Positions 3,852-39,765 of a stretch of DNA of 64,000 nucleotides are shown in pieces. Numbering within the stretch: the stretch's first letter is position 1; each line of letters begins with the position of its first letter. The DNA is taken from contig JAQBGU010000135.1 of NCBI GenBank assembly GCA_032128375.1, positions 7,213 through 71,212 on the forward strand. The letters run 5' to 3'. The position numbers and the translations under genes are program-made. The DNA comes from Deltaproteobacteria bacterium. GTDB lineage: Bacteria; Myxococcota_A; UBA9160; SMWR01. The notes below the pieces were generated by a model. The model was not told the origin of the DNA and made no database searches. It saw only the letters and a list, made by a program, of their open reading frames with translations.

Positions 3852-5084
3852 ATGGATTTCGAAGACACTCCGGAAGAAGCCGCCTTTCGCGCCGAAGCTC
3901 GCGCATGGCTCGACGCCAACGCGAAATTGTTGGATCCCAATGAGTCGGTGCAGGGGTTGATGGAAAGCGAAGGAGGTGGTGGCGTCAAGCGGGCGCAACA
4001 GTGGCAGGCAAAGAAGGCCGATGCCGGTTGGGCGTGCATCACCTGGCCCAAGGAATACGGAGGCCGCGCGGCGACTTCGATCCAGAGCGTGATTTGGAAT
4101 CAAGAGGAGGCGCGATACCGCACCCCACCGAGCATTTTCGGCATCGGCCAGGGCATGCTCGGGCCAACCATCATGACTCACGGTACGCAGCAGCAGAAGG
4201 ATCGATACATCCAGCCGATGCTGCGGGGCGAGGAAATCTGGTGCCAGTTGTTCAGTGAGCCTGCGGCCGGATCAGACCTGGCTGGCTTGCGCACGACCGC
4301 CGTGAGGGACGGGGATGATTGGATCGTCAACGGCCAGAAGATCTGGACCACGGGCGCGCAATTCTGTAAGTGGGGGATGATCGTGACGCGCACCGATACC
4401 AGCGCGGTCAAGCACGCGGGGATCACCTACTTCATCGTCGATATGGAATCTCCCGGCATCGAGATCCGGCCCATCAAGCAGATCGCCGGCTCGAGCGGCT
4501 TCAACGAGGTGTTTTTCACCGGTTGCCGGATTCCGGACCAGAACCGGGTCGGTGCGGTAAACGACGGCTGGCGGGGCGCGATTACCACGCTGATGAACGA
4601 GCGCTCGTCGATCGGCGGTGGTGGTGGCGGCGCCGGTGTGAAGGAATTGATGCGGTTGGCGAAGCAGTGCAAGCGCAACGGGCGGCCTGCTATCGAGGAT
4701 GCTTCCGTGCGTCAGCAGATTGCGGACTTCTATATCCGCGGCAAAGGACTTTCCTACACGGGGTCGCGAACGCTGACTGCGATCTCGCGCGGTACCACTC
4801 CGGGGCCGGAGAGTTCGATCGGCAAGCTGGTTGGCGCACCACTGCGCCAGCAGATGGCTGCATTCGCGATCGACTTGCAGGGTGCGGCCGGTTTGCTGGT
4901 CAACCAGGACGCCGCCCAGGATGGTGTCTGGCAGATGGCTTGGCTTGGGGCTCCAGGCATGCGCCTGGCTGGCGGAACAGACGAAATCCTGCGCAACATC
5001 GTGTCCGAACGCGTCCTGGGCCTTCCCTCCGAGATGCGGGCCGACAAGGGTGTGCCATTTTCGGAGATTCCGACGGGTATCTAA
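3852..5084 (+). CDS. acyl-CoA dehydrogenase family protein
   Basis: The ORF 3813..5084 has a likely start MDFEDTPEEAAFRAEARAWL at ATG 3852, after AGGAGAAG. It carries ACAD motifs, including C-terminal GGTDEILRNIVSERVLGLP. Confidence 0.9.
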   Translation: MDFEDTPEEAAFRAEARAWLDANAKLLDPNESVQGLMESEGGGGVKRAQQWQAKKADAGWACITWPKEYGGRAATSIQSVIWNQEEARYRTPPSIFGIGQGMLGPTIMTHGTQQQKDRYIQPMLRGEEIWCQLFSEPAAGSDLAGLRTTAVRDGDDWIVNGQKIWTTGAQFCKWGMIVTRTDTSAVKHAGITYFIVDMESPGIEIRPIKQIAGSSGFNEVFFTGCRIPDQNRVGAVNDGWRGAITTLMNERSSIGGGGGGAGVKELMRLAKQCKRNGRPAIEDASVRQQIADFYIRGKGLSYTGSRTLTAISRGTTPGPESSIGKLVGAPLRQQMAAFAIDLQGAAGLLVNQDAAQDGVWQMAWLGAPGMRLAGGTDEILRNIVSERVLGLPSEMRADKGVPFSEIPTGI

Positions 5085-33818: not shown

Positions 33819-35198
33819 CTAGTCCCGTCGGCGCATCAGATAGAGAACCCGGTCCGACCCCGGAATCGGCGTTCGATCCTCGGTTTCGAAACGGCGAGCG
33901 AATGCGGCTTCGAAATCCTGTGGGGTGTAGTTGTCGAACACGTCGGTTCGGTTCGCGAGCAGCAGCTGTGCCTTCGGGTCACTCTTGGGCACGAACTCGA
34001 TGATCAGCCGGCCGGACAGACGCGCGAACCAATCGGCGACGCGGCTCAGCGGCACGTTGTTCGAAATGGCCAGGTGGTGAATCAACGCGAGAGCCATGAC
34101 CAGGTCCGCTGGACCCCGATCGACGAGCGACGCGCGCTCCTCGTGTGCCCAGCCGAGGCTCGGGCTGGGATTCGAAAGGTCGAGTAGTAGCGGCAGCAAA
34201 CGCGTCTCACGTTCACGTCGCATCTTGCGATAATTGCGGTCGACACACGCAGGGTCGACATCGAACGCCAGCGTCAGCATTCCGCGCTGGGCCGCGAGCC
34301 GGCTGTATTCGCCGGTATTCGCGCCCAGGTCCCACACACTCGCCGGCTGTGCGCGATCGAGGTAAGTCGCGACGATCTGGTGCTTCTGCTCTTCGGCCGC
34401 TTCGGAATAGCTATCGCCTTCGTAGTAGTCGGCCCATTCGGTTCCCGCGGCATCCCAGCGGAGCTTTTCGACGGCTGTCTCGAGCGCTGTCAGCAGGTTC
34501 GCCAGTGATTTCTTCGGAACGGGTCGAACCGTCACTTTCTCGGTCGCTGTCTGGTAGCGATTCTGGTAGCCCGCGTGCATTCGGATGTGCATGAATAAGT
34601 GGATATTGAGCCAGGCACGCCGGGGCAGCAGCGTACGCGCGAGATCGAGCGGTATGCCGTCGAGGTTCACACGCAGCAATTTCGCGAGCCGAATGTCGCA
34701 ATAAGACATCAGCGCCAGCGGCGCCAGAAAATGTTGGCAGAACTGGCGGTATCCGACCCAGGGAGTATCTGGCTGGTAGATTTCGAACGACAACGTATCG
34801 ATGAACACGGGTGCGCCGCGGTGGAACTGGACATTGTAGGCACTAGCGTCCTTCAGCGTCATTCCGAACCGAAGAGCCGCGTGTTGGATCTGTAGTGTCA
34901 GCAGTGCCGCCGCTCGGAGTTGGCTGAACGACCACTCGTACGGGTAGGACACGAAGTCCACCCGTTCGGGTTTCAAGGTGAGGTAGTCGTCGAGCTCGAC
35001 GTCCGGTTCCGGCTCGTCGACGCTCTGGTGCGGAATCAACAGCCTGCGTTCGACCAACTCATCGTACAGCCCTGATTTCATCAGGCATTCGTAATCGTCG
35101 GCGTAGCTGCGCCGGACTCGCCGGAACAACTCACCGTCGCGCTCGAACAGATACCCGCTGGGATCGCGAAAGGACGCGCCCAGGGAGCGTTCATTCAT
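33819..35198 (-). CDS. SAM-dependent methyltransferase (NoeA-like family)
   Basis: The N-terminus is FRDPSGYLFERDGELFRRV, and the C-terminal half carries VWDLGANTGEYSRLAAQRGMLTLAFDVDP (motif I). Confidence 0.75.
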   Translation of the reverse strand: MNERSLGASFRDPSGYLFERDGELFRRVRRSYADDYECLMKSGLYDELVERRLLIPHQSVDEPEPDVELDDYLTLKPERVDFVSYPYEWSFSQLRAAALLTLQIQHAALRFGMTLKDASAYNVQFHRGAPVFIDTLSFEIYQPDTPWVGYRQFCQHFLAPLALMSYCDIRLAKLLRVNLDGIPLDLARTLLPRRAWLNIHLFMHIRMHAGYQNRYQTATEKVTVRPVPKKSLANLLTALETAVEKLRWDAAGTEWADYYEGDSYSEAAEEQKHQIVATYLDRAQPASVWDLGANTGEYSRLAAQRGMLTLAFDVDPACVDRNYRKMRRERETRLLPLLLDLSNPSPSLGWAHEERASLVDRGPADLVMALALIHHLAISNNVPLSRVADWFARLSGRLIIEFVPKSDPKAQLLLANRTDVFDNYTPQDFEAAFARRFETEDRTPIPGSDRVLYLMRRRD

Positions 35199-35436
35199 CG
35201 CGCGATTCGGGGCCCGCCGGCGGCGTCTCGGAATCGTCTGGCTTGGCTCCGAATCCGAACAGCGTCTTGATCTTGTTCCAATAGATATTCACGGTGACGA
35301 TGATTCCCGCCATGGCCGCCACCAATGCCTGCAGCAGGAAGCTGCCTGCACCGGGATCGACGTACGAAAGCAGCGGCCCGTGAACAAACGACGCGGGCTC
35401 CAGCGTCATCAGGGTCGTGGACACCCACCCAATCAT
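35191..35436 (-). CDS. small membrane protein (81 aa)
   Basis: MIGWVSTTLMTLEPASFVHGPLLSYVDPGAGSFLLQALVAAMAGIIVTVNIYWNKIK... lies behind a GGAGG RBS. Its stop overlaps the downstream methyltransferase start by 8 nt (ATGAATGA). The tracked 258-aa ORF upstream part is Arg/Ser-rich and overlaps the opposite-strand gene. Confidence 0.5.
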   Translation of the reverse strand: MIGWVSTTLMTLEPASFVHGPLLSYVDPGAGSFLLQALVAAMAGIIVTVNIYWNKIKTLFGFGAKPDDSETPPAGPESRDE

Positions 35437-35450
35437 CGTGCGCCTCCATA

Positions 35451-35499
35451 TGCCTTGCAGGACTGGAATGCCTGACTGGAATGCCGGACTGGAACGCCG
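35451..35499. repeat. tandem repeat, 13-bp unit GACTGGAATGCC(T/G) x about 3.5
   Basis: Read directly: units at 35461, 35474 and 35487, plus a partial unit before them. It lies 15-63 nt upstream of the minus-strand start at 35436. Confidence 0.9.
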
Positions 35500-35660
35500 G
35501 GCCCAATCATGACACTCCATCCCCCGCCCCACCAGCAACCAGCGGTACCCCCGACCGATCGCCTGAGCCCGATCGCGGTCGATTGCAGCGAGAATCGCTG
35601 CAGAACTCGAGCCGGAGCTGGAGTCGGAACCCGGCATGGCTATCGTGACGGTCGAGCGAG

Positions 35661-37964
35661 ATGACGAAGAGCGCGGATCGGACAGGGCAGGGGTCGCGCA
35701 TCGGCGCGATGGTGGGATTGTTCGCGGCGGCCATCGCTGTTCGCGCGCTACCAGCGCCGACTGTTCTGCTCGGCGATCGCGTTCAGCCGTTTGGCGGCGA
35801 CGCGTTCTACCACCTGCGCCGAATCGCGTATTCGATCGAGCAATTCCCTCATGTACTCGAATTCGATCGCTACGTGAACTTCCCGACAGGCGCGATTGCG
35901 ATCTGGACACCGGTTTTCGACTGGCTGATCGCCGCGCTGGCGATCTGCCTCCGAGCCGAGCCGGCATCCCTCGAGATGGAACGAATCGCGGTCTGGGTTC
36001 CGCCGGTTCTTGGAGCAGCGACCGTCGTGGTGCTGTATCGACTGGCGGCGCGCACCTTTGGCGAGCCGATCGGGCGCACGGCTGGTGCGCTTTTGTGCAT
36101 CAGTTCCGCGCACTTCTGGTACTCGCAGATCGGCTTCGTCGACCATCACGTTGCGGTCGCGCTCGTCACTACGCTGCTGCTGGGTCGCGCGATCGCGTAC
36201 CTGGACGCGCAGTCGGAACCTGCCCCGGCATGGCCGTTGGGGCTCGCGCTCGGCGCAGCATTGTGGATCTGGCCCGGTACGCTACTTCACGTCGGCATCA
36301 TCGAAGCCGCACTGCTGATCGCGCTCTTGACGGAGGCCGACGCATCCGCGGCCGCTGCACGGCGTTTCACAAACGTGCAGTGCATTGCACTGCTGTTGAT
36401 GCTGCCCTCCGGTGTCACAAACAGCTGGCCGCAATGGGGGGCCTTCAGCCCGGTCGTGCTCTCACTGTTTCAGCCCTGGCTATTCGCCACATTGACACTG
36501 TTTGGGTTCGGGTGCAGCGCACTGTGGCTCCACACGCGGCTCGGCGCGTCCGTCGGGAGGCGCGCACTCAGCGCTGCAGCAATCGGCTTCACATTGTTGC
36601 TGTGTAGCCTTCTTGCGATTCCAGAATTGTGGATCGGTGCGCACGATGCGTGGCAGTGGTTCGGAAAGACGGAGGTTTTTCAGGCCCTCGTCAGTGAATC
36701 ATTGCCTCTGTTGGAGCTCGATGGCGATTTCAGCACCCAGGTGGCCTCGAGTCGCCTGTCCTACTTCGTATTTCTGTCTCCGATCGCGCTGCTCTGGGCG
36801 GCGACCAGCGCCTGGCGAGGAGAACGTGAGCGCGGACGATTGTTGCTGGTCGGCTGGACCGCGGTGCTGCTGGCCGCGACGCTGTGGCAGAAGCGCTTCT
36901 TCAATACCTCCTCGGTCGGCCTGGCTCTGCTGATGGCATGGACACTAGCCGGCGTACATCGCGCATGGACCGCGCGAGCGGGTGGCCACTCGCGGCTCGC
37001 GAGCGCGGTCGTCGTATCTGTCACCGCGCTGCTGTTGCTTCCGAGCGTCGCGAGTTTTCGCGGCTTCCTGCCGAACTGGCGCGGCGACGGTACGATCGCA
37101 GGTTCTCGCCTGCAACTCGCGCAGAATGTCGCGATTGCGACTTCGGAATATCTGCGTCGAGAAACCCCGACGACTTCCGGATGGCTGGACGCCGATGCTT
37201 GGCCCGAGTATTCCGTGATGGGTCCGTGGCCGATCGGGCACGTGATCGAATACGTCGGACGCCGACCGACAGTGACTGACGGATTCGGCGACGACCTGGG
37301 GCCCGAGAACTTCGAACGAGCGGCACGTTACTATGCTGCTGAAGAGCCAGAGGCACTCGCGATCGCAGAACGACTCGGTGTTCGGTATGTAATCGCGCAG
37401 CGCAGCGCAACTTTTCTGGGGAGAGAACCCGGCGCCGCCAGTATGCTGACCGCTTTGTTTGTTCGCGATGGGTCTGAGAGGCCGCTCCCTTCGACCCGAG
37501 ATGCCGGCGCTATTGCACCACCTTCGCCGACGACCTTCCCGGCACTGCATCGCCACCGGCTCATCTACGAATCCGCGCCTCCCGGAGAACGGAGTCCCGA
37601 GCGCGAGTCGTTGTTCAAGCTGTTCGAGATCGTGGTTGGGGCCGAGATCGTGGGTCGCGCGACGCCTGGTGGGCGTGTAAGCGCCGCTGTGGAGCTGAAG
37701 ACGAATCGGAAACGCGATTATCTCTATTTCACGAGCACGACTGTTCGGGAAGATGGCGGCTACACGCTACGCCTCCCGTATGCCAATGGAGGGCCAAACA
37801 AGCGCGGTGTCGTCGGGGTAGGCATGCATTACACGATCGCGTGTGGGGATGCGAAGCGTCCCATCGGCGTGACGGAGCGCGACGTTCAGTCCGGAGCGAA
37901 GCTCCGCGTACCGGAACTGGACTGTCAGTCAGGAATGAAAAAGAGCGATGCTTGGACGCAATAA
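35661..37964 (+). CDS. STT3/AglB-like oligosaccharyltransferase-family membrane protein (divergent)
   Basis: The first loop FGGDAFYHLRRIAYSIEQFP resembles the archaeal AglB D-x-YYHLR motif. There are about 13 TM segments and then a soluble C-terminal domain. At the WWDYG position the sequence reads MGPWPIGHVIEYVGRRPTVTDGFG. Confidence 0.6.
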   Translation: MTKSADRTGQGSRIGAMVGLFAAAIAVRALPAPTVLLGDRVQPFGGDAFYHLRRIAYSIEQFPHVLEFDRYVNFPTGAIAIWTPVFDWLIAALAICLRAEPASLEMERIAVWVPPVLGAATVVVLYRLAARTFGEPIGRTAGALLCISSAHFWYSQIGFVDHHVAVALVTTLLLGRAIAYLDAQSEPAPAWPLGLALGAALWIWPGTLLHVGIIEAALLIALLTEADASAAAARRFTNVQCIALLLMLPSGVTNSWPQWGAFSPVVLSLFQPWLFATLTLFGFGCSALWLHTRLGASVGRRALSAAAIGFTLLLCSLLAIPELWIGAHDAWQWFGKTEVFQALVSESLPLLELDGDFSTQVASSRLSYFVFLSPIALLWAATSAWRGERERGRLLLVGWTAVLLAATLWQKRFFNTSSVGLALLMAWTLAGVHRAWTARAGGHSRLASAVVVSVTALLLLPSVASFRGFLPNWRGDGTIAGSRLQLAQNVAIATSEYLRRETPTTSGWLDADAWPEYSVMGPWPIGHVIEYVGRRPTVTDGFGDDLGPENFERAARYYAAEEPEALAIAERLGVRYVIAQRSATFLGREPGAASMLTALFVRDGSERPLPSTRDAGAIAPPSPTTFPALHRHRLIYESAPPGERSPERESLFKLFEIVVGAEIVGRATPGGRVSAAVELKTNRKRDYLYFTSTTVREDGGYTLRLPYANGGPNKRGVVGVGMHYTIACGDAKRPIGVTERDVQSGAKLRVPELDCQSGMKKSDAWTQ

Positions 37965-38197
37965 ACAGATTTCGGCTGGCAGCGATCAGATCGATCAACA
38001 AGGTCAGGCGTCGACGCAAGCCTTGCGTCGCGAGCCGCCCCAACGAGTGGTTCGTCGGGATTGACCAGCGGATCCATCGAGTTGGCTGCGCAGATGCCGC
38101 TGGCTGCGCTCGCGGCCAAGTTCCAACTCGGGCAACCCGATGTAGTAAAATCACCACGAAGATGAAGTGGTGATCCTGGCGTGGGTGATTTTCTCCT

Positions 38198-38286
38198 GCT
38201 CCACGACAAGAGCAAACCCGGCGAGAGCCGGGGACGCAAAGCCAGTGCCCAGCCTCGGGAATCCGAGTCGGGTCGAACGGCTGCCG
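38198..38286 (+). promoter_or_regulatory. c-di-GMP-I (GEMM-I) riboswitch-like aptamer
   Basis: CCACGACAAGAGCAAACC-[CGGC GAGA GCCG hairpin, GNRA loop]-GGGACGCAAAGCC-[second hairpin CUCGG GAAU CCGAG with extended stem]. This parallels the V. cholerae Vc2 aptamer as I recall it (CACGCACAGGGCAAACC-AUUCGAAAGAGU-GGGACGCAAAGCC...). It ends immediately before the AAAGGAG RBS of the 38300 gene. Confidence 0.75.
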
Positions 38287-38299
38287 AAAGGAGTTGTGC

Positions 38300-38917
38300 A
38301 TGACCGCTCCCCGTCGACTGACAACCGCTTTCCTCGTCGCGGCGATCTCCGTGGCTTCCTGTGGTGCCACGCCTTTCGCTGAACTGGCGAGTACGAGCGA
38401 GAATCCTCCGCTCGGTTATTCGCCATCCGCGCTCAGCGGGGACGCGCTCGCTGCGTCTCGTGTGTTGGGAGGGCTGAACACCGGGTTGCTTCCCGATGAA
38501 GTCGCGAGGCTCGGCGTCGCAATCGTCATGGAGTCGCGACGAGCTGGGATTCCGATGGAGTTGGTGCTGGCGCTGATCCAGGTCGAAAGTAGTGGCAACG
38601 CCTTCGCGGTGTCCGGTGTCGGCGCGATCGGGCTCATGCAGCTTCGCCCGAGCACGGCCGAGGAAGTCGCTGGCCGACTCGGAATCCGCTGGATGGGCGC
38701 TGCAACATTGTTCGAGCCGGTGACGAACGTTCGGCTGGGCGTCGAGTATCTCCGCCAATTGATCGAGCACTACGACAGCGTTTCGATCGCACTCGCCGCC
38801 TACAACTGGGGGCCGGGAACGATCGGGAAGAGGCTGCGGCTGGGCGAAGCGATCCCGGCCGGCTACTCGGATAAAGTCATGGCAAAATATCGCCGACCCC
38901 TGCACCGCGCGATCTAG
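38300..38917 (+). CDS. lytic transglycosylase (SLT domain) lipoprotein
   Basis: Lipobox SVASC. Catalytic motif LIQVESSGNAFAVSGVGAIGLMQL ... AYNWGPG. The ATG at 38300 is 6 nt after AAAGGAG. Confidence 0.9.
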   Translation: MTAPRRLTTAFLVAAISVASCGATPFAELASTSENPPLGYSPSALSGDALAASRVLGGLNTGLLPDEVARLGVAIVMESRRAGIPMELVLALIQVESSGNAFAVSGVGAIGLMQLRPSTAEEVAGRLGIRWMGAATLFEPVTNVRLGVEYLRQLIEHYDSVSIALAAYNWGPGTIGKRLRLGEAIPAGYSDKVMAKYRRPLHRAI

Positions 38918-38978
38918 GGCGAGTTCATTGGCGCGTGTTCGGGCTGTCGGCGCAGACTCCTGGCTCGGGCGGCTCCGA

Positions 38979-39560
38979 TCAGGAAGCGTCCGTCACGATC
39001 ACGCTGATACGTGAGTCTCCCTTCGTACCTGAGATGTTGACTGTCACCTTGCGGGAGTCTTTGAGCCCGGCGAGCCCTAGCTGGCCGCCAAAACTTTCCT
39101 CTTCTGCGATCGCCCAACCCTGCTCTGCGAGCTTGGTCTGATAGAACTCGTAGATATCCTGCTGGGAATCCATCGTCTTGAACGTGACCATGCTGCCTTC
39201 AGCACCTGCCGACATCGCCGCCATCGGCTCGGCTCCCGGATACAGCGGGATATCGGTCGGAAATGAACGCGGTACCTTCGCATCCTCCCCGATACTGGCC
39301 TCGAATGCATTGCCTTGCCCATCTGTCCCAGAGAAGCGAACCGGGTTGCCTTCGGCGTCGCGCTGATCGACCGTCACATTATTGGGAATGTCGGGCGGGG
39401 GTACCTTCTTCGCAGGCACAGCAGCGGGCTCTTTTGCCGCTGTCGCTGCCGGCGCCTGTGTCGGCGCGGGTGCCTCGTCGCTTCCGCACGCAACGAAGAA
39501 GAGAAATGACGCCGCGATGACCAGTAGTGCGCAGCGCGCATGAAGCGTTTTTGCGAACAT
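38979..39560 (-). CDS. hypothetical lipoprotein
   Basis: Start re-set to MFAKTLHARCALLVIAASFLFFVAC (lipobox FVAC; ATG 39560). An Ala/Pro-rich linker is followed by a globular domain. I recognise no family. Confidence 0.6.
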   Translation of the reverse strand: MFAKTLHARCALLVIAASFLFFVACGSDEAPAPTQAPAATAAKEPAAVPAKKVPPPDIPNNVTVDQRDAEGNPVRFSGTDGQGNAFEASIGEDAKVPRSFPTDIPLYPGAEPMAAMSAGAEGSMVTFKTMDSQQDIYEFYQTKLAEQGWAIAEEESFGGQLGLAGLKDSRKVTVNISGTKGDSRISVIVTDAS

Positions 39561-39765
39561 GCTGTTTTCGTACCCCCGGTTGCTGAGTTCGGCAGATCCT
39601 ACATCGGAGCGACTCAATTGAGTAGCTCTGAGTTTGCTCGCTTGGCTGTGCTTCTCAGGCACCTTTTGCGCCTGTTTGGTCCGGCGTTAGACTCCCGCCA
39701 ACCCGGCACGGTTCAACCGTCCATCCACCCGCGATTATCGACTTCAGAACAAGGACTCGAATACT

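Follow-up and report, generated by a model that had tools for sequence, protein, structure and literature searches.

GEMM-I (c-di-GMP-I; RF01051) riboswitches form a class that is already well understood, and a further member of the class is not in itself news. In the Gs1761 RNA, P1 comprises G1-G8/C76-G84, J1/2 A9-A14, P2 C15-G40, J2/3 A41, P3 A42-U73 and J1/3 G74-C75, and C75, which corresponds to C92 of Vc2, forms a Watson-Crick pair with a guanine of the ligand (PMC6274999). The change of G20 to A, with A47 and C92 kept, is the defining difference between the cGAMP and the c-di-GMP riboswitches (PMC6140456; PMC6456294); the corresponding A14 of Gs1761 is the final nucleotide of J1/2, beside P2 (PMC6274999; PMC6140456), and most of the characterised cGAMP riboswitches are from Geobacter (PMC8835794). 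Natural RNAs that carry A20 range from those that are approximately 1200-fold selective for cGAMP (PMC6456294) to the c-di-GMP-preferring Cbe 1-2, which binds c-di-GMP at 30 nM and cGAMP at 463 nM (PMC6140456). The Vc2 G20A variant binds both ligands, c-di-GMP at 53 nM, and in these two A20 RNAs (viz. Vc2 G20A and Cbe 1-2) c-di-GMP is bound equally well as or better than cGAMP (PMC6140456).

In the present work, we have analysed a window of 64,000 nucleotides from a contig labelled Deltaproteobacteria bacterium, the G+C content of which is even (58-65% throughout). An earlier reading of its sequence had placed a GEMM-I-like leader before a lytic transglycosylase lipoprotein gene in this window, had named a score for RF01051 below the gathering threshold as grounds for giving up that assignment, and had asked for the motif and for covariation to be sought in orthologous leaders. 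An Rfam scan of both strands of the window (4227 families, gathering thresholds) identified the leader as its sole gathering-level match, to RF01051, at 61.0 bits (E 1.8e-9) and over model positions 1-87 of 87; no tRNA, rRNA or further family was found at this level between positions 1 and 64,000. The score lies far above the gathering score of 35 bits and hence favours a riboswitch, and the motifs quoted in the original prediction were all located in place (Table 1). We consider it probable (roughly 0.7) that the segment 38198..38294 is a functional GEMM-I riboswitch which senses a cyclic dinucleotide and controls the initiation of translation of the SLT gene downstream, its ligand being most likely 3',3'-cGAMP or cGAMP together with c-di-GMP.

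Table 1. Positions of the leader, its parts and the surrounding genes in the 64,000-nucleotide window.
Feature	Position	Strand	Remarks
Band_7 gene	32827-33615		
Gene beside STT3 gene	33819-35198	-	no confident family match
Gene beside STT3 gene	35191-35967	-	no confident family match
STT3/AglB-type oligosaccharyltransferase gene	35661-37964	+	PF02516, PF18079, PF22627
Conserved block CAAGTTCC	38117-24	+	alignment of nine orthologous intergenic regions
Conserved block CCGATGTAGT	38137-46	+	alignment of nine orthologous intergenic regions
ATCACCAC	38150-57	+	predicted motif, position confirmed
Hairpin AUCACCAC / GUGGUGAU, 9-nt loop	38150..38174	+	predicted by RNAfold (MFE and centroid)
GTGGTGAT	38167-74	+	predicted motif, position confirmed
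Purine-rich strand GGCGUGGGUGA (38178-88), U-rich loop, CUCCU (38193-97)	38178..38197	+	candidate alternative structure
GTGGGTGAT	38181-89, then TTT	+	predicted motif, position confirmed
P1 5' strand GCUCC-A-CG	38198..38205	+	GCUCC, anti-SD; CG, junction-proximal P1
P1 outer pairs	C38202:G38290, C38201:G38291, U38200:A38292, C38199:G38293, G38198:U38294	+	
P1 internal loop	A38203 opposite AAA 38287-89	+	mapping to Gs1761 / RF03167
P1 inner pairs	G38205:C38285, C38204:G38286	+	mapping to Gs1761 / RF03167
RF01051 match	38201..38288	+	Rfam scan
J1/2 ACAAGA	38206..38211	+	A38211 at position of Vc2 G20 / Gs1761 A14
AGAGCAAACC	38209-38218	+	predicted motif, position confirmed
P2 helix, GNRA tetraloop GAGA (38223-26)	38212..38237	+	cmscan alignment
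Hairpin CGGC-GAGA-GCCG	38219-38230	+	predicted motif; GNRA loop 38223-26
GGGACGCAAAGCC	38231-38243	+	predicted motif, position confirmed
J2/3 AA	38238..38239	+	A38238 equivalent to Vc2 A47 / Gs1761 A41 (intercalating); RF01051 and RF03167 alignments
P3 helix	38240..38282	+	cmscan alignment
P3 base AGCC/GGCU, middle GUGCC/GGU..AC, distal hairpin CUCGG-GAAU-CCGAG	distal 38254-38267	+	
J1/3 GC	38283..38284	+	C38284 equivalent to Vc2 C92 / Gs1761 C75
P1 3' strand CG-AAA-GGAGU	38285..38294	+	holds SD GGAG 38290-93
AAAGGAG	38287-38293	+	predicted motif, position confirmed
SLT-domain lytic transglycosylase gene, 205 aa	ATG 38300..38917	+	PF01464
Third GCUCC copy, codons 3-4	38306-38310	+	Ala-Pro of MTAPRR
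AF_1845-family gene	38979-39662	-	PF27226, function not described

The layout of the aptamer is the standard one of three helices, with a P2 capped by a GNRA loop, a long P3 with a variable distal hairpin and a P1 that closes the junction. The loop of P2 is GNRA in all of the 12 leaders compared (viz. GAGA, GAAA, GUGA, GCGA, GGGA, and GGAA), one P2 pair changes from C:G to U:A in locus L180, and the nucleotides of the junction are all invariant across the orthologues, including A38238 and C38284, the equivalents of A47 and C92 of Vc2. The 11-nt tetraloop receptor wording of the Rfam consensus (CUAAG...UAUG) is not present in P3 in the cmscan alignment, and the leader presumably resembles in this respect the receptor-less subtype of GEMM-I. 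Judged by its sequence, it is a genuine and conserved riboswitch of the GEMM-I class, and an ordinary member of that class apart from one base of the pocket.

The aptamer precedes each of the 12 distinct orthologous SLT genes that were recovered from contigs fetched for SLT homologues (47-96% protein identity), with its 3' end about 12 nt from the start codon. Nine distinct orthologous leaders that were scored against RF01051 reach 53.8-60.9 bits, and a local covariance model extended to P1 and the Shine-Dalgarno (SD) sequence scores the 12 distinct leaders at 101-136 bits; the presence of a GEMM-I leader before this gene is thus borne out both by the family match and by its conservation. Homologues of the SLT protein number in the hundreds, and the sources of the close ones are metagenomes and MAGs that bear the label "Deltaproteobacteria bacterium". 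More distant homologues, from among the matches listed in alignment-based scans of genome and metagenome contigs (generic SLT motifs), served as negative controls, and the local covariance model found no GEMM-I element adjoining the SLT gene in the other loci fetched for them. In the loci L001 and L083 (43-51% identity) the SLT gene abuts an upstream ORF in an operon-like manner and the leader is absent; in L082 there is a gap before the SLT gene, yet no aptamer was found in it. When genome contigs were scanned with this one protein as query, no relatives came up. The riboswitch-SLT unit is specific to one clade and is stable inside that clade. A separate observation concerns L080, a Desulfuromonadales MAG locus with a distant SLT homologue, which carries an unrelated RF01051 riboswitch (622-728, + strand; 54.8 bits). 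This element precedes a PilT-like ATPase ORF (833-1897) by about 100 nt and lies about 3 kb from the SLT gene; the locus also has two tandem 5S rRNA genes (4404-4713, - strand).

Covariation was assessed on an alignment of the 12 sequences. Standard pairs occupy 95.7% of the alignment cells, vs 21-48% in controls with the 3' partners displaced by 1-3 columns. Changes on both sides occur in five pairs (column shuffling would lead one to expect 2.1, and 5 is reached in 4 of 500 shuffles), in an alignment that was fitted to the model and in which each compensatory pair comes from one sequence. The distal hairpin of P3 holds three of these five, and the remaining covariation lies mainly in one P2 pair and in P1. 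The covariation that had been called for is therefore present in the orthologous leaders as five compensatory pairs, but it is thin, because the core of the aptamer is almost invariant.

The base that sets the leader apart lies directly 5' of P2, where position 11 of the Rfam consensus model is a strongly conserved G and the window has A38211. On the basis of published descriptions (PMC6140456; PMC6274999) and of the Rfam alignments, this nucleotide maps to G20 of Vc2 and to A14 of Gs1761. It is invariant in the 12 orthologues, across their full span of 47-96% protein identity, so that the G which reads Gα of c-di-GMP is replaced by A in all 12, and the combination found, A at position 20 with the equivalents of A47 and C92 kept, is that of the GEMM-Ib RNAs. 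The pocket code is hence A/A/C where the canonical one is G/A/C, which makes 3',3'-cGAMP, or cGAMP and c-di-GMP both, a more likely ligand than c-di-GMP alone. The presence of A38211 leaves the RNA inside RF01051, which holds GEMM-Ib RNAs too, and weakens a claim of selectivity for c-di-GMP. The original prediction that the leader links c-di-GMP directly to a cell-wall-cleaving enzyme therefore stands as regards a cyclic-dinucleotide riboswitch, but the ligand that it named may be wrong or incomplete, A38211 being a GEMM-Ib signature. As read from the sequence, an A at position 20 is no proof of cGAMP selectivity: a ligand preference for cGAMP falls somewhat short of an even chance, a preference for c-di-GMP is somewhat less probable than that, and the rest of the probability goes to a bispecific RNA or to another ligand.

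The foremost alternative is that the leader is a canonical c-di-GMP-selective GEMM-I riboswitch for which c-di-GMP is the sole physiological signal, A20 being tolerated and Gα bound via a protonated adenine. The family that the leader matches is that of c-di-GMP-I, c-di-GMP signalling is far commoner than cGAMP signalling, and we know of no cGAMP synthase in the source lineage, all of which count for this alternative, as do the affinity of Vc2 G20A and the preference of Cbe 1-2 for c-di-GMP cited above. We nevertheless regard it as unlikely, since the A is invariant across 12 orthologues at a place where the family has a strongly conserved G, since this very change is the one that defines the cGAMP riboswitches, and since the source is labelled Deltaproteobacteria, a group reported to have conserved Hypr GGDEF cGAMP synthases (PMC6456294). 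When all six frames of the 64-kb window were scanned for motifs of cyclic-dinucleotide enzymes, neither GGDEF nor EAL nor any other was detected; EAL- and PilZ-like strings in the window were rejected as spurious.

P1 was mapped onto the architecture of Gs1761 and onto the explicit P1 of the RF03167 consensus, in both of which the layout c-a-cg...cg-aa-g is also found (PMC6274999). It follows from this mapping that the SD sequence GGAG, located 6 nt before the start codon, forms the 3' strand of P1. Three of the P1 pairs counted are C:G in 12/12 sequences, and the remaining one, 38200:38292, is U:A in 10, C:G in L179 and U:G in L171; the SD itself changes from GGAG to GGGG in both L171 and L179, and the anti-SD of L179 has the compensating change of U to C. 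The proposal of translational control through pairing of the SD is thus supported by an anti-SD, GCUCC, the pairing of which is kept in 12/12 and covaries with the SD. The element originally put forward as the anti-SD, CUCCU, is indeed present just 5' of the aptamer, but the covarying partner is the adjoining GCUCC (38198-38202), and CUCCU is unable to pair with the SD in 3 of the 12 leaders (viz. L169, L181, and L171). A terminator scan of 37700-39300 found none on the + strand, and a transcription-terminator platform was rejected for this reason.

The simplest reading of this arrangement is that the switch is likely a translational OFF switch. The ligand would sit in the junction, contacted by A38211, A38238 and C38284, and once bound it would stabilise P1 and lock the SD against GCUCC, so that the masked SD would receive fewer ribosomes. 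In the ligand-free RNA, the partner of GCUC would be GAGC (38210-13) or the purine-rich strand upstream, and either of these alternatives would break the pocket and free the anti-SD. In the ligand-free RNAfold ensemble, the pairing of GCUC (38198-201) with GAGC has a probability of approximately 0.99, and when the pocket is constrained, the P1:SD pairing has a predicted probability of 0.71-1.0 in 6 of the 12 orthologues. The window's own sequence is folded by the nearest-neighbour model without P1 even when the pocket is constrained; favoured instead are a helix termed P0, which the segment 38178..38197 together with 38198-38202 could form in competition with P1, and a pairing of the SD with the third GCUCC copy at codons 3-4 (probability approximately 0.6 by RNAfold). 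P0 is predicted by RNAfold in the window and in L161, L165, L167, L172, and L180, and its energy is no better than that of shuffled upstream sequence, so that P0 is unproven. The complement at codons 3-4 is missing from about half of the orthologues and may therefore be a by-product of protein conservation. Given these competing folds (viz. P0, codons 3-4, and the first CUCC copy considered next), OFF is a direction of switching that we infer.

The same aptamer could conversely serve an ON switch, in which the SD of the ligand-free RNA would be held by a first CUCC copy (38193-96) and the second copy, within the anti-SD GCUCC, would be engaged with GAGC; on binding of the ligand the second copy would be freed, the purine-rich strand would zip with both pyrimidine copies as P0 and the SD would be released. 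The RNAalifold ligand-free consensus does choose these two pairings, so that some masking of the SD could occur in more than one state, an 11-nt complementarity of GGCGUGGGUGA with UCUCCUGCUCC recurs in several orthologues, and ON switches have a precedent among the GEMM-I riboswitches, e.g. that of pilM (PMC9262584). An ON switch is improbable, however, because the first copy cannot pair with the SD in the three leaders named above, because P0 does not exceed shuffled controls in stability, because homology with Gs1761 and with the RF03167 consensus makes G38290 of the SD a P1 nucleotide, and because the pairing of the second copy with the SD is the one that is retained throughout and covaries.

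Several elements lie upstream of the translational OFF switch that we favour. Two copies of GTGG(G)TGAT had been noted before the aptamer, either of which was thought able to pair with ATCACCAC. A hairpin that pairs this element with the first copy is predicted, but it is conserved only in part, with compensating changes in L164 (AUCGCCAC/GUGGCGAC) and loss of the helix in L165, L167, and L172; it may be either a hairpin of the 5' leader or an element that precedes the transcription start. The second of the copies, GTGGGTGA (38181-88), has its complement in the pyrimidine tract before P1, and hence it may join an alternative helix and not a terminator; GTGGGTGAT with the following TTTT was rejected as a terminator-like element, the U-tailed hairpin not being conserved. 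The conserved blocks CAAGTTCC and CCGATGTAGT may, from their sequence conservation, be candidate promoter elements of the leader; a sigma-70 consensus scan found no promoter at these blocks (38117..38146). A sigma-54-like TGGCTG-N5-ATGC at 38083-97, seen by eye, was dropped for want of conservation among the orthologues.

The gene downstream of the leader encodes a protein with an SLT domain (PF01464; E 8e-27, 93.5 bits vs a cut-off of 21.3). Its start is placed at the ATG at 38300 because the N-terminus MTAPRRL is conserved and GGAG lies 6 nt upstream. The signal peptide, of lipoprotein type, ends in a lipobox-like VAS followed by C, a Cys that is frequent among the homologues but not universal, and in 32 homologues the catalytic-type motifs VES, GLMQL, and AYNWGP show little or no variation. 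The relatives of the catalytic domain in the PDB are Slt70/Slt, MltC, and EmtA, and the NCBIfam model matched best, though below its cut-off, describes the catalytic region of a flagellar-assembly lytic transglycosylase. Since the next gene is convergent, the leader controls a single gene. That gene, of the AF_1845 family, converges on the SLT gene in almost every orthologous locus, the order being the riboswitch and SLT gene, the convergent AF_1845-family gene and usually then an FKBP-type isomerase; this neighbourhood is tightly conserved, and a functional link to the SLT gene is not evident.

On its upstream side, the gene before the riboswitch varies among the orthologous loci, being an STT3 gene, a Band_7 gene or a pyridine-nucleotide oxidoreductase gene. 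In the window, a block of three genes that includes the STT3/AglB-type oligosaccharyltransferase gene sits between Band_7 and the riboswitch. The STT3 gene stands alone in this interval in L169 and L170, and Band_7 directly precedes the riboswitch in L165, L167, and L172; the STT3 block thus looks like a variable insertion. The original prediction had placed the enzyme next to an envelope glycosylation cluster. Because STT3-type glycosylation genes are found at some of the orthologous loci only, their adjacency is not a functional link, and these genes are no conserved partner.

As judged by full-text literature searches, in which no paper connected a lytic transglycosylase gene with a riboswitch of the GEMM or c-di-GMP kind, the regulated function is new to GEMM-I, viz. 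a lytic transglycosylase as a conserved one-gene unit in a clade of uncultured bacteria. Such a unit would tie cyclic-dinucleotide signalling directly to the cleavage of peptidoglycan, possibly for the insertion of envelope-spanning machines. Because of the invariant A, these leaders are candidate sensors of cGAMP outside Geobacter, and with the SD serving as outer P1 the aptamer and expression platform together take up about 100 nt, a compactness that could suit biosensors. The most specific form of our reading, a cGAMP-selective GEMM-Ib riboswitch outside Geobacter that acts on translation through an SD inside P1 and switches off a lytic transglycosylase, is put forward tentatively, at less than even odds. 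If it is true, signalling by 3',3'-cGAMP through riboswitches extends to an uncultured lineage labelled deltaproteobacterial and to the remodelling of the cell wall, and the leader is a compact natural translational sensor of cGAMP.

In comparison with the known systems, the leader shares with Vc2 and the other GEMM-I RNAs (RF01051) the GNRA loop of P2, the GACGCAAAGCC junction, P3, the J1/3 GC with its ligand-pairing C, a P1 that starts with CG/CG beside an A-rich internal loop and a position ahead of an envelope-related gene, in its 5' leader; it differs from them in the A at position 20 and in a P3 without the GAAA-receptor wording. The variants c-di-GMP-I-GGC (RF03167) and c-di-GMP-I-UAU are orphan members of GEMM-I, and the former resembles the leader in overall sequence and structure (52.9 bits, E 3.6e-12, in E-value mode) and has an identical P1 layout. 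A GEMM-I-derived variant with a different ligand, or a structured leader, still conserved, that has lost ligand binding, is very improbable in spite of this alignment and of the missing P3 receptor wording, because the score lies below the gathering score of 59, both of the variant-defining G residues (at model position 10 and after GACGC) are A here, the pocket A/A/C is a combination with a known ligand, and the invariance of the junction argues for a binding site that is maintained.

The GEMM-Ib riboswitches of Geobacter, viz. Gs1761 upstream of pgcA and that of pilM in G. metallireducens, are alike in the A at the specificity position, the 6-nt J1/2, the J1/3 GC and the three-helix architecture (PMC6274999; PMC6140456), and also in the deltaproteobacterial label of their source and in cell-surface or envelope targets. 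The cGAMP riboswitches of Geobacter control cell-wall enzymes, viz. a lipoprotein transpeptidase operon, and peptidoglycan transpeptidases are among their surface targets (PMC6456294), so that enzymes of peptidoglycan are not an unprecedented target. They differ in that those characterised are terminator-based and transcriptional, with that of pilM being an ON switch (PMC9262584), whereas the leader described here is terminator-free, and from the inclusion of its SD in P1 an OFF switch at the level of translation is predicted.
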